Assembly: GCF_054482595.1 (NCBI RefSeq)
Contig: NZ_JBTHVH010000004.1
Strand: one strand, 5' to 3'
DNA length: 64,000 bases
Origin: a plasmid
The first letter of the stretch is position 1, and each line of letters starts with the position of its first letter. A program made the position numbers. Below, in pieces: positions 15,001 to 21,000 of this stretch.

Positions 15001-18000
15001 ACTGGGGTTGCCTCCTGAAGTTGGGTTTCAGTTCTGGGCTAGGTTGCTAACTCTGCTCCCATAATTCGTAGTGGGCCTACTCAAGAGATTAACACCTCAT
15101 ATCTTTAGACTGGACTGACGACAACGATTCACAGTTAGGAAACGTAAATCAGCACACCGGTGAGATAGATTTTAGGGTCTAAGCAAGAAATAGGGTAGGC
15201 GTGAAGATTCATTAATGGAGCTCATAACGTCAAAGCGTAGAGAAGTCGACAAGAATCGTGGTTTAAAAAGAATGAGCATTAGGTATGGACTAGAGAGTCT
15301 GAGCTCTCATCTGCAAGTTAAGCTCACAAAAAATCATAAAAAAGTAAACAAACATTAGCTTAGGATTGAAACAAAGGATAGAATTGTACGTATAACAATG
15401 AAATGGACGCATTATGCGTAAAGTTTACATATATGCGTAAAAGTCGGTTTTCAGTGCAAAAAGGTCATAACCATGAATTTACTTGAAAAGATCGCCCTCG
15501 TTGGTCAGCGCATGAAAAGCGAGCAGATTTCTCTTAAGGAATCTCTGATGGCTTCATCAAGAGTATCTGTTTCTGATGATAGTGTTGATGGTGTTGATAG
15601 ACTGATCTACAACCACTGTTTAAATAAAAAAAATCTCTCTGATTTTTTTGGGAAGTCACGAGTAACGTTCAATAAAATACTTTCGGACTTAGAAGAAAAA
15701 GAAGTTGTTGGTGCACCTATTTATCAAAACAAAAATCATCTTTACACCCGCTGGGATGTTCAAAAAATAATGGATGCCCTGGGTTATCCCAAGTACCGCG
15801 ATCATTACTTTAGCAGAGCTATTGTTACTCAGAATCATAAAGGCGGTACAGGGAAAAGCACTACATCTGTAGCTTTAGCAGTAGCAGCTGCTTTAGATCT
15901 ACAACTGAATGCACGTGTATTAATGATCGAATGGGACCCACAAGGTTCGATTGGAAGCAGCATGATTCAAAGTGTCTCAGAAGATGATGTCTTCCTTACA
16001 GCAATTGATGCAATCCTTGGAATTTATGAAGAAAATTCTGAGTATAAAAAATATTTAGATTCAGGATTCTCTGAAGAAGAAATCATCACTAATATGCCTT
16101 TTTCAACGCATCTGCCAAACTTGGACGTGATAACGGCATTTCCGACAGATGCTCGTTTTAAAGATAAATACTGGCAATGTTCTAGAGAAGAACGAACGTC
16201 TTTGTTACTACGTTTCAAGGAAGTTATCTTACCGGTACTGAAGCAGAACTATGATTTGATTATTATAGACACTCCACCTGAAGATTCACCTTTGATCTGG
16301 GCTGCTGACGAAGCGGCCGATGGGATTCTTGTCGCAGTGTCACCACGTGAATATGATTACGCCTCTACTACAGACTTCATGCTTACAATAAGTGAAAGGT
16401 TTAAACAATCACCAAGTAAGGGCGATAATTTAAAATGGTTCAAAGTTCTTGCTGTCAATGTTGATGACAAAAGTCCATATGAAAGAATAGTTTTGGATAA
16501 ATTAATCAGAACTGTTCAGGACCTTTTGATGTCCGCTAACATAAAAAATTCTGAAGCATTTAAGGCAGCTGCTTCCAAAGGGCGTACAGTGCTTGATATC
16601 AAAAAATCAGAGGAACTTTGTTCCGCAAAGCAACTTGATGTCGCAGAAGAATCTGTATTACAGGTATATCAACAATTTATAAATGAAATAAAAAGTTTTT
16701 CAGCTAAGCAAGGAGTTAACGCATGAGCGATGAGCAACATATCGGGAATGATAAATCTCGATATTTAAACGCACCAAAGCGGACAGAAGTCGGTCACCGT
16801 TCAGGTCTTGCGGGTTTGAAAACAGCACCTCGCATAAAAAAGTTATTCACTCTTCATAAGGGCCGAAGACTTGAAGCGGAACATGTGATTGTTCCAGCCC
16901 AGAGAGTGGAGAAGGAGACCTTAGTCCATCCAGCAAACCCACGAAATCAAGAAGCCCTTACAGATTATTCTGTTAGAGATATTCTTAAGCAGATTGAAGA
17001 AAGAGGGGTCGATACCGAAGGGATCGCTGTAAAAAGAGATGGGGTTTATTTATTAATAGAAGGAAGTCGCAGACGTTTCTGCTGTATAAAGGCAGAAAAG
17101 GATCTCCCCCTGTGGGTACTACCGGATGAACTAACCGAAGATGATATAAATTCAATTATATCCGCAGCACAAACATCTCGAAAATTTTCATATAGAGAAG
17201 TTGGGTTTCAATTTATCAAGAAAATGGAAGAAAAGGGATTTTCTACTAATGAAGAACTCGCAGCATATCTTGGGATTAGTCATGTATCGGTAGCCAAAAG
17301 AATCCAGGCGGCACGTATTGACGAAACATTGATCTCTTTATTCCCGGATTATGAAGGAATACCGAACTCCTATTATAGTCGCTTGTCTCGTTTACAGAAA
17401 TATGTGCAAAAAAATCTATTTCCTTTAGATGAAGTAATAGATAATGTTAAAGAGGAAACAAAAGATTTAGACATTGGAGATCTCCAAGTTGCCCAAAAAG
17501 TTGTAATGGAGAAAATCACACAATCTGTGGAAAGTGTTTGTGAAAAATCTTATTCCACAAAATGGGAAACAAGTGATCTTATTACTTTTGATAACAAAGA
17601 TAAGTATGCAAGAATCAGTAAAAACAATACTGGAAGAAAAATTCGCATTGAATTCAATAGGATAAGTGCGGGTTTTATTAAGGAGCTAGAGGAGTTCATA
17701 AAAGAAAAATTAAAAGTATCAGAATAAATATTGAACTGCATCTTTATGATGCAGTTCATATGATTTATATTTTTAATTTCTTGTTATATTAATATGGGGT
17801 GTGCGCAGGTTCAGACATATAAGGTCTTAGTTCTATATGAACAGAAGCGCCATTCCCATCATTTACTACGTTTAAAGGTGCTTTGCCCGGCAATGACATA
17901 GTTGCAACGTCAGGTCCAGAAACAGCAAAATTATTTTCTGCTGAAGGCATTACTGTAAAAATCTTTATAGCAACATTTTCATGTCTAAATAAAGAAATCC

Positions 18001-21000
18001 CAAAAGTAGAACCAGCTTCGGTATTGCTCACGTCCACAACCACAGGGGTTTTTCCTAGATATTCATTAGTTAGTATGTTTTTTACTAATGCCCCTTCCGG
18101 GACAGTATAGATACGGTATGGATATGCTAAAACTGAGTGACAAAAACATAATAAAATAACAATTAATGTTTTTTTCATAGATTATCCTCATTCAAAAATA
18201 AAAGATATAACTCTTGAAAATCGTGGTTATTAATTAGGTCCGCTTTTCCGGGAAAATCGTAACTAACAGAAAATAAAAGAGAAAGAGAATCTTTTCCTTT
18301 TGCTTTGGGAGAGATTCTGCTAAAAGCACGGTTAATAAACATAAGTTGATCTTCATTGTTGAAGCAAAGTCCAAGCATTCCAACCGTAGGAACTACGAAT
18401 GTGCTTACGCTGCCTGGGGGCAAAAGTTGCTTACTACGGGCATTGTAAGCACAACGACTACCACCTAGCGTTAGGCCTGAAAGCTCAATAAAACTTCTGG
18501 TTCCATTCTTGGCGACAAGCCAAACATCAGTTCCTGAACTTTCGACACGTAAAGTAACTTTTCCGTCAGTAAAGGCCTCACTTTTATTGTATAGAATAGG
18601 GTCAAAACCAACTATCGGGAGTTCTTCGATTTTACTTTCTACTGACTGACAACCAGTCAGTAATGCAAACAATAAAAGTGTGATAACTTTAATCATCCCG
18701 CTTCCTTAGATTGTTTTTGGCGCTGGTTATAAAAGATAATGATTCACCGGGGTAGAGAATTGTTTCTTTCGTCCAATAACGATAACCACCGAGGATATCT
18801 TTTCTTTTCTCAATATAAACCGGTTCAGAAAATTCTAAATGTTGATATTTCGGAAGAGATAAGATTTTATATTTTACTTGTCCAACTAAGAGGTAATTCT
18901 TCTCTTTAGGATTGATGGTTACTGAATTACCAACACTTTGAGGTATGTTAAGTTTTTTTATATTTAGATCAGAATCGTCAGGAACGGACACTTGATCATT
19001 AGATGTCTTTCCGGGAAGAGTAAACCCTTTACCCTGATCCGGTCCAAAGATGGCAATTACATCTTTGTTGTTTCTTGTGATCGAAACGATAGCCTGAAGG
19101 GGCGTATTAGCAAGGTCATTTATAAACGATATAGTTATACTTGATTTAGGCTCGACCCAAATAATGCTTTTTCCGGATGTGCCTTCGCTTAATGCAATTT
19201 TTTCATTTAGTAAGATTTTATTTTTGGCAATGATATTATACTCAAGTTTCGGTATCACCATAAAAAGTGATTCTTTATTTGAAACATTCATGATTTCTAA
19301 GAAATTGGTTTTGGTCATGCTGGTCTTTAGAACAGGCCTATATTTACCATTTATAAACCACCTTCCGTTTATAAGCTCCGCTTTAGCAGATATAAGTGAA
19401 TCACTTTTCTGAGCGGCAGAAGAAAAAGCATCTTTTCTTTGCTCTTTCTCTTGATGTGGTGCAGCTGCTGCGTGAAGATGCAAAAGTAATGTTGAAATTG
19501 AGATAATCTTCCATTTTATCTTCATCTTGTTACCTCAATGTTGTTTTCAATCGAATCGAGTTCTAACGGATAGGTTTTAAGTGAATAAAACTTGTTTGTT
19601 GTTTGTATTAGCTGATGACACAATAAAACTGGATTGTTCTTCATGATTATTTCTACTAATGTAAGTGCTGGTGAGTCAGTTGGCGGTATACCCGGAGCAA
19701 CTATTACCTGGTCTTCTAATTTTGACATATAGAGTGATCCAGTATTTATATGTAAACAATTACCGATCAGTACTGGAAGATTGTTTTGAGTACGACCATG
19801 GGCTTTTCGAATGCTGTTTACAGGATTCCTACCTAGGACCATAAGGTTGACGTCATTTATCATCATTGGTATTACGGCATGGTCCATACCGAATAGAAAC
19901 TGGCTCTGAAAAATATTCACATTGGCATAGTTGAATGCTTGAAGCGCATTATAAGTATCAGTGAATGATGTGCGGATAGGGGCGTAATCAGAAGGGCAAA
20001 CCCCAATTTTTATATCGCCTTTGAGTAAAATCTGCATCATCGTACCAAGCTGGGTATTAAGAAGTTTTTTTACCTCTTCCTCTAAATAGTAACGATTTAC
20101 AGCTTTATGCCACTTTCCGCCCATTACACACCATCTCTCATTGAGGTATGTGCTGGGGTAAAATGTTCTCCGGTCTTTGTTTAATGGTAACAATTTTTTT
20201 AACATTTCTTCTCCGGCTCCGGCAGCTGAGAAATGCCTCACAAAACGTCCATCGAAAAAGCCACTGTTTATCGCCTTCATCAACTCTATGGGTTCCGGCC
20301 CATAGTCAAACAAATTTCCAGTAGAGAAAATTACTATCTCTTCTTCTGGCTTTGTAACTGATTGAATCAAGTTGCACAGCGCAGAGTAATGTCCATGAGG
20401 ATCTGCCAGAAAGAAAATCCTTCCCGAGAAGTTTGTAAGGTCTATAGTTTGGACGTGCTCAGCTGCCATAAATTCCTCTACGTATGTTTACATCGATGAT
20501 ACGGTATTTCGAGCTATGATTTTTTTACATAAAGGCGTCATTTTGGATTCTAAGCCTAAGGACCTTTGTTACTTACTGGTAAAGGCTCCAGTCCTGGCTC
20601 TCAAACAGTTCATACTTAGGATGCAAAGTAACTTTCTGATTATAATTGGCTCCTTTATAAACATGTTTACTTCATGAATACAGGATATTTAACGGTAATG
20701 TATTTAAAATGGAAGGATGCTGAAATAACATAGAGTTACGTATTTTTTTAATAGTGTTGATGTTGATAATAGGTCACCATTAATGTATAAAGTTAATATC
20801 TAATATGGTCCTATTAATAAAAGAGAGTTTTTATGGCTGAACTATTAAAATCTGAAAGTCCTGTTTCACAATCATTGCAGGATATCACTGAAGCTTTAAA
20901 AATCGTTGTCGATGATGGAAGTAAAGCTGCAAAACTGGTTTGTCTTAATGAAAGAAACGAATTAGTTCCCTTGCTCACACAAAATAGTTTTGTTCCAGAT

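Follow-up and report, generated by a model that had tools for sequence, protein, structure and literature searches.

Exclusion decides which plasmids enter cells that already carry a relative, and it thereby shapes the spread and recombination of resistance plasmids; IncHI2 plasmids rank among the major carriers of multidrug resistance. The operon considered here is already known from IncHI plasmids. For R27, the IncHI1 prototype, the supplementary tables of PMC7366339 list R0015 as 'trhO (Z), phosphodiesterase', R0016 as 'eexB (Z), exclusion protein', R0017 as 'lipoprotein (Z)' and R0018 as 'trhZ (Z)', followed by R0019 (parB) and R0020 (parA), and the same work states that the Z operon 'codes for the entry-exclusion system'. 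A preprint supplementary table (10.1101/334409) places the 'Z OPERON' in Tra2 between ParB and ParM, with the entries EexA (TrhZ), 'periplasmic lipoprotein', EexB ('periplasmic protein') and TrhO, and gives the loci of the IncHI2 plasmid R478 as SMR0016-SMR0019. Here we analyze four minus-strand genes at positions 17789-20469 of a 64,000-nucleotide stretch of plasmid contig NZ_JBTHVH010000004.1 (RefSeq assembly GCF_054482595.1), the whole of which we call the window. With a probability of about 0.85, we judge these genes to be the IncHI2 copy of the Tra2 Z operon, trhO-eexB-lipoprotein-trhZ, and hence an accessory conjugation module rather than a partition or cargo element.

The R27 operon is activated by TrhR/TrhY, repressed by HtdA and not thermoregulated; in a microarray of an htdA mutant at 25 °C, trhO rose 8.3-fold, eexB 12.1-fold, the lipoprotein gene 17.1-fold and trhZ 16.0-fold, while parM, parB and parA stayed at about 1.0 (PMC7366339). 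An htdA gene is also present in the window. According to the summary given in PMC11628540, Lawley et al. 2003 reported that trhO and trhZ increase transfer frequency, and according to that in PMC11493245, Gunton et al. located EexB in the outer membrane and found EexA and EexB to be needed in donor and recipient alike, a statement made likewise in PMC8923210. The exclusion factors of F, namely TraT (an outer-membrane lipoprotein mediating surface exclusion) and TraS (an inner-membrane protein mediating entry exclusion), resemble those of IncHI in being encoded inside the transfer region with one of them at the outer membrane and, as far as these later summaries go, in being dispensable for the transfer machinery itself. 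They differ in acting in the recipient, whereas the summaries describe the IncHI factors as necessary in both partners, and the IncHI operon adds a cytoplasmic phosphatase-fold protein. Scans of Pfam and NCBIfam gave no match between any of the four proteins and the TraT, TraS, TrbK or SXT-Eex families at an expectation value (E) of 1 or below.

Many IncHI2 plasmids in PLSDB match the region at 100% identity, several of them at identical coordinates, so that the window represents the beginning of such a plasmid record; the PLSDB records with a DNA match comprise 1127 of IncHI2 type, 284 of IncHI1 type and 553 of the Klebsiella IncHI1B/pNDM-MAR type. In R27 the counterparts of all four genes lie between parM and parB, their order, orientation and overlapping junctions unchanged, and the relationship is one of direct orthology: blastp identities between window and R27 are 72% for TrhO, 45% for EexB, 62% for the lipoprotein and 78% for TrhZ (E from 1e-69 down to 0), compared with 89% for ParA, 80% for ParM and 72% for ParB in the flanks. 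The window EexB is thus set apart by its strong divergence, which is greatest in the C-terminal domain (26.5% identity) and may correspond to a different exclusion specificity. Across R27 and one more distant contig, the order of the whole set is preserved, with amino-acid identities of 39-78%. In UniRef the first protein is entered as 'IncH1 plasmid conjugative transfer protein TrhO' and the fourth as 'TrhZ', while the names eexA, eexB, trhO and trhZ appear on no PLSDB record among the matches listed. RefSeq labels trhO as 'metallophosphoesterase' and the other three as 'hypothetical protein'; the four can now be named trhO, eexB, Z-operon lipoprotein and trhZ. At the level of annotation, the new points are a likely pseudo-phosphatase (TrhO), a cupredoxin-like fold (EexB) and the linkage of the operon to Tra2 rather than to partition.

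An earlier note on this DNA had described four translationally coupled minus-strand genes between parB and parM, and an open reading frame (ORF) listing of the window reproduced its coordinates, with exactly four minus-strand ORFs within 17789-20469. All four are read from the minus strand: trhO (19522-20469; 315 residues, cytoplasmic), the orthologue of R0015 and first gene of the operon; eexB (18689-19525; 278 residues, predicted to be exported), the orthologue of R0016; the lipoprotein gene (18175-18696; 173 residues), the orthologue of the unnamed R0017; and trhZ (17789-18178; 129 residues, predicted to be exported), the orthologue of R0018. To judge from sequence comparison, these are real genes and not chance ORFs, because their order and sequence are conserved across lineages. 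Read on the reverse strand, the successive junctions are ATGA (4 bp), ATGATTAA (8 bp) and ATGA (4 bp), and because starts and stops overlap by 4, 8 and 4 bp the proposed translational coupling is plausible. A Shine-Dalgarno sequence, AGAGGA, lies 7 nt before the trhO ATG, and the G+C fraction of the operon (0.32-0.41) is the same as that of the surrounding backbone. In RefSeq, R27 trhO (20184-21155) starts 8 codons further upstream, giving 323 rather than 315 residues; the 315-residue start is the form conserved across the family, shared by IncHI2 and the majority of database members in that cluster.

Distant relatives reveal which neighbours the module has kept. A TrhO homologue of 45% identity (P0014) lies on a contig (L003) with four genes of 304, 268, 173 and 128 residues that overlap by 4 bp and are divergent from parM. 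A profile search of 1.84 billion representatives retrieved three more distant TrhO-like proteins, and each is encoded first in a four-gene set (loci L004-L006) whose members 2-4 are homologous, in matching order, to window proteins 2-4, with E-values of 4e-39 to 1e-5 for the EexB-like proteins, 3e-43 to 4e-19 for the lipoproteins and 5e-45 to 1e-23 for the TrhZ-like proteins. In all three loci the set directly adjoins trhC/traV/trhB and parAB is lacking; in L006, which is of the Klebsiella IncHI1B/pNDM-MAR type with its 553 PLSDB records, parMR is missing too. L004 and L005 had no near match in PLSDB. The arrangement common to the window, R27 (L002), L003 and L004-L006 is a position within Tra2, divergent from parM/htdA and convergent with parB/trhC. 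In L005, an inserted YdjM-family gene (10462-10962; 166 residues, opposite strand) separates the lipoprotein gene from the trhZ-like gene, so the four-gene arrangement, elsewhere tight, is broken there.

Because the sets in L004-L006 adjoin trhC without parAB, and that of L006 also without parMR, the conserved partner of the module is the group of Tra2 type IV secretion genes. The partition cassettes were added around the Z operon, and its position between them is incidental. This refines the suggestion of the earlier note that the operon is embedded in a partition and transfer region. In the window, the flanks are parA/parB (15473-17727, plus strand) on the trhZ side and parM/parR (20833-22547, plus strand) on the trhO side, and the location between parB and parM, shared by IncHI2 and IncHI1, is what would recommend the four genes as accessories of the partition systems Par1 (parAB) or Par2 (parMR). 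We reject that explanation, to which we attach almost no weight, on the gene context of L004-L006 and on the expression data from R27, where the four genes respond 8- to 17-fold to HtdA and parA, parB and parM do not (PMC7366339); moreover, three of the four products are exported and would be ill-suited to cytoplasmic DNA segregation. It is no more credible that the module is cargo unrelated to conjugation, such as an anti-phage defence system or a surface factor for host interaction, even though defence and virulence islands often combine an enzyme-like protein with exported proteins whose fold families are unknown. None of the four proteins has a PADLOC match, on which ground anti-phage defence was rejected; the synteny inside Tra2 is fixed across all IncHI-like lineages examined; the families of TrhO (6 representatives) and TrhZ (60 clusters) are narrow; and exclusion and transfer phenotypes have been published. 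The Tra2 Z operon thus remains our identification. Its occurrence in all related transfer regions examined, together with the published R27 phenotypes of transfer frequency and recipient discrimination, accords with the view of the earlier note that this is an envelope or surface module tied to transfer.

TrhO was the protein for which that note had proposed a PPP-like phosphatase lacking an export signal. Its Pfam Metallophos score lies narrowly above the cut-off (24.4 versus 21.5 bits), its best NCBIfam matches are the PrpA and PrpB equivalogs at scores far under their cut-offs (23.6 versus 332 bits and 14 versus 326 bits), and PHROGs returns a 'NinI-like serine-threonine phosphatase' at E=1.4e-7. 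A PDB sequence search leads to lambda phosphatase (1g5b), to which the fold of an AlphaFold2 model built from 15 homologues is also closest (predicted local distance difference test score, pLDDT, 67.2; predicted template modelling score 0.72); the model has a calcineurin-like metallophosphoesterase fold. Its structural matches include inactive proteins of the same fold, namely Vps29 and DNA polymerase B subunits. The family is narrow: of 1.84 billion proteins, 6 representatives reach E<=1e-30.

The active site was compared by aligning 16 proteins of the TrhO clade with lambda phosphatase and with 17 canonical relatives drawn from the same profile; the lambda sequence used agrees at both ends with the PDB-search alignment. 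The canonical relatives retain nearly all of the 11 catalytic positions of the lambda enzyme: D20, H22, D49, D52, R53, H76, H139, H186 and D202 are kept, N75 is replaced by I in one of the 17, and R162 is kept in 15. The TrhO clade presents a different picture. There, D52 is kept in all members (D55 in the window) and D20 in 14 of the 16, with N in the other two (window D23), while H22 is H in seven (window H25) and Y, C, Q or R in nine. The bridging D49 is N in all 16; R53, which binds phosphate, has become Y, N or W, and the metal ligand N75 has become A, S, F or Q; H76, the general acid, is G in 13; H139 is P, S or A in 14 (P in the window); R162 is lost in 15; H186 is R in 13 (R in the window); and D202 is N in 12. 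In terms of motifs, the window protein has ADPHG for GDxHG, so that the Asp and the His of motif I are both there, the latter being variable in the clade; GNLFDYG and GAGE stand where motif II (GDxxDRG) and motif III (GNHE) would be and match neither, and LGRNP stands for GHT. We considered GGKWH as a GNHE motif and rejected it, since it aligns instead with the downstream W..NGG.W of lambda phosphatase, GNHE being aligned with GAGE; GGxWH is invariant in the TrhO clade.

From this pattern, the binuclear metal site and the general acid appear to be gone, active phosphatase chemistry is unlikely, and TrhO is probably a pseudo-phosphatase. Its motifs do align in position with the PPP core, so the misalignment that the earlier note had named as grounds for abandoning its proposal was not found; the fold assignment and the lack of an export signal stand, while the catalytic implication is undercut by the substitution of most catalytic residues. 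Compared with lambda phosphatase NinI and with PrpA/PrpB, TrhO is some 90 residues longer, scores far under the equivalog cut-offs and has replacements of the bridging Asp, the motif II Arg, the Asn-His of GNHE and two His ligands. With the inactive metallophosphoesterase-fold proteins, which comprise Vps29, the B subunits of polymerases alpha, delta and epsilon, and GAP50, it shares no specific sequence similarity; its origin lies in the bacterial PPP branch and not in those families. It might nonetheless be argued that TrhO is an active, unusual metallophosphoesterase, either a protein phosphatase or a nucleotide or Ap4A-type phosphodiesterase, which tunes conjugation or exclusion and makes the operon an enzyme-plus-envelope signalling module. 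The narrowly passed Pfam gathering score, the RefSeq label, the term 'phosphodiesterase' in the R27 table (PMC7366339), the closeness of the fold to the lambda enzyme, the conservation of D23 (14 of 16) and D55 (all members) and the H25 of the window all speak for this. However, 7-9 of the 11 catalytic or metal positions are replaced, and consistently so across the clade (Asp to Asn, GNHE to GAGE, two His ligands lost), while 17 canonical relatives from the same profile keep nearly all of them; the H22 position varies among Y, C, Q and R; the PrpA/PrpB score is 23.6 against 332 bits; and inactive Vps29 and polymerase B subunits are among the structural matches. We therefore consider an active enzyme improbable, and the label 'metallophosphoesterase/phosphodiesterase' probably overstates the chemistry of TrhO.

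EexB belongs to a small family of 24 clusters, in which the IncHI1 versions are about 44% identical. A model based on 21 sequences (pLDDT 79.7, and above 90 across most of two all-beta domains) places the domains at residues 44-165 and 181-278 with a low-confidence linker between them, the N-terminal 41 residues (signal peptide and tail) being disordered. The model has tandem cupredoxin-like beta-sandwich domains, and a sub-threshold Pfam Cu-oxidase match (15 bits versus a cut-off of 21) agrees with it. A search for copper ligands found no HxH motif and no conserved His or Cys column in any of the 21 homologues. Hence EexB is predicted to consist of two cupredoxin-like domains without copper centres. 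No sequence relative was found in the PDB, and weak NCBIfam matches to fusF and a dehydrogenase were dismissed as noise. A known example of a multicopper-oxidase fold without copper is the periplasmic SufI/FtsP of E. coli (2uxt), which differs from EexB in having three domains rather than two, in lacking detectable sequence similarity and in its biology. SufI is a Tat substrate. The N-terminus of EexB has no twin-arginine motif, and for this reason EexB is probably Sec-exported. A comparison of IncHI2 with IncHI1 gives 57% identity for the N-terminal domain and 26.5% for the C-terminal one, and because of this disparity the latter is a candidate determinant of exclusion specificity. The predicted fold and its variable C-terminal domain offer a concrete hypothesis on how that specificity arises. 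Neither this structural assignment nor that of TrhO was found described in the literature that could be searched.

Export was called from hydropathy and motif rules together with the recurrence of features in six divergent lineages. An N-terminal hydrophobic core is absent from TrhO and present in proteins 2-4, whose export features recur in the six lineages; these are a signal peptide in EexB and in TrhZ and a lipobox in the lipoprotein, in keeping with the earlier assignment of all three as exported proteins or lipoproteins. The 173-residue protein has the lipobox L-T-G-C with Cys16 and is classed as a lipoprotein, the motif reading LTGC, VTGC, LSGC, ICGC, LSGC and LTAC in the six lineages. 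C16, C82 and C111 are invariant in all six, which suggests that C82 and C111 may form a periplasmic disulfide. Under the Lol sorting rule, the residue after the lipidated Cys guides the choice of membrane. Because this +2 residue is Q, A, N or S and never Asp, the lipoprotein is probably sorted to the outer membrane. No Pfam or NCBIfam family matched it above cut-off, nor did any PDB entry; a match to an Rz-like spanin covers the signal peptide only and was dismissed as noise.

Of the four proteins, TrhZ is the best conserved (78% identical to R27). Its N-terminus, MKKTLIVILLCFCHSVLA, is signal-peptide-like; the signal peptide ends in Ala and is followed by a conserved Y/F-x-Y-x-I and then by P-x-G-A ... 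G-x-T-P. This last motif gives rise to matches to Pfam PEGA (PF08308), which fall below the cut-off of 20.8 bits, at 13.5-16.2 bits in four of the six lineages (16.2 in the window), and always cover the same N-terminal part of the mature protein. No sequence relative was found in the PDB. The TrhZ family comprises 60 clusters at 90% identity, several of them named trhZ, from Enterobacterales plasmids. One 90%-identity cluster contains both the 173-residue lipoprotein and the 130-residue TrhZ of R27 despite their unrelated sequences, which is probably an artefact of the overlapping genes or of a fused gene call.

It is tempting to consider how these proteins might act together. After Sec export, EexB, the lipoprotein and TrhZ would populate the cell envelope, TrhZ as a small PEGA-like beta protein. 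Because exclusion in R27 needs factors in donor and recipient, the likeliest and simplest mechanism would be like-with-like recognition across the mating junction, such that mating-pair stabilisation or DNA entry would be blocked between two cells with plasmids of one type. Specificity would probably be set by the C-terminal domain of EexB, which diverges fast, while TrhO would stay in the cytoplasm, most likely as a non-catalytic binding or regulatory subunit rather than as a phosphatase. The full proposal, which we hold at even odds, is that two enzyme folds would have been repurposed in the exclusion and mating module: TrhO as a genuine pseudo-phosphatase with a signalling or scaffolding role on the cytoplasmic side, and EexB as a copper-free, two-domain cupredoxin protein whose hypervariable C-terminal domain would set exclusion specificity between IncHI subgroups through like-with-like recognition across the mating junction.

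Several points weigh against our interpretation. TrhO retains D23 and D55 and may for that reason still bind some metal or have an altered chemistry, and the TrhO model is of moderate confidence (pLDDT 67). Homotypic recognition is inferred, as is the part assigned to the C-terminal domain of EexB. The trhO phenotype of the 2003 Lawley study reportedly came from transposon insertions in this first gene, and it could be a polar effect on trhZ. EexA, for its part, is said to have been placed in the cytoplasmic membrane in the 2008 Gunton study, with which the appearance of TrhZ as a cleaved periplasmic protein is at odds. The equation of EexA with TrhZ comes from one preprint supplement (10.1101/334409). 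The name eexA is not in the complete R27 gene tables of PMC7366339, which would be in keeping with eexA as an alternative name for some gene entered differently but does not prove which one, and the supplements of the IncC exclusion paper mention neither EexA nor EexB. Finally, all phenotypes are carried over by orthology from R27 to the IncHI2 copy, and those of Lawley 2003 and Gunton 2008 are taken as later citing papers report them.

Elements that may delimit transcription of the Z operon lie on either side of it. A hairpin with a perfect 11-bp stem at 17732-17758, terminator-like in a scan of either strand, sits between the convergent stops of parB (17727) and trhZ (17789), and from this position it is likely to be a bidirectional intrinsic terminator that ends the operon. 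On the other side, trhO and parM diverge from an AT-rich intergenic region of 363 bp (20470-20832; G+C fraction 0.32-0.37), which by its position should contain the Z-operon promoter as well as the parM promoter and centromere. Within it, a consensus scan found no sigma-70-like site, and a repeat search returned just short matches, probably due to chance.

Further features lie around the partition cassettes. At 12515-15093 is a tandem array of 10.5 copies of a 249-bp unit (71% matches), with a G+C fraction of about 0.5 compared with about 0.37 in its flanks; it occupies most of the stretch from trhC to parA, which is free of coding sequences, and yields repeated spurious ORFs. At the corresponding position of R27, the table of 10.1101/334409 enters 'ParS' (R27_p024/22). 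On the other side of the operon, an IS2-type element on the minus strand (about 22462-23800) encodes orfA of 136 and orfB of 301 residues. We take it to be IS2 from InsC/InsD and the terminal repeat TGGATTTGCCCC. Relative to pSI67-1, from which the sequence diverges at window position 22462, the element sits in the 3' end of parR, and the insertion alters the C-terminus of ParR (221 versus 212 residues). It also lies just upstream of htdA, the repressor of transfer operons including the Z operon. Downstream of parR (window from about 24233-25690 onwards; L001, 18975-23279) follow htdA, htdF and htdK and then rsp, a gene of 1434 codons for the large surface protein RSP. All of the distant loci keep a gene of 1400-1450 codons at the rsp position, and a second surface-protein gene is thus conserved near the exclusion operon.

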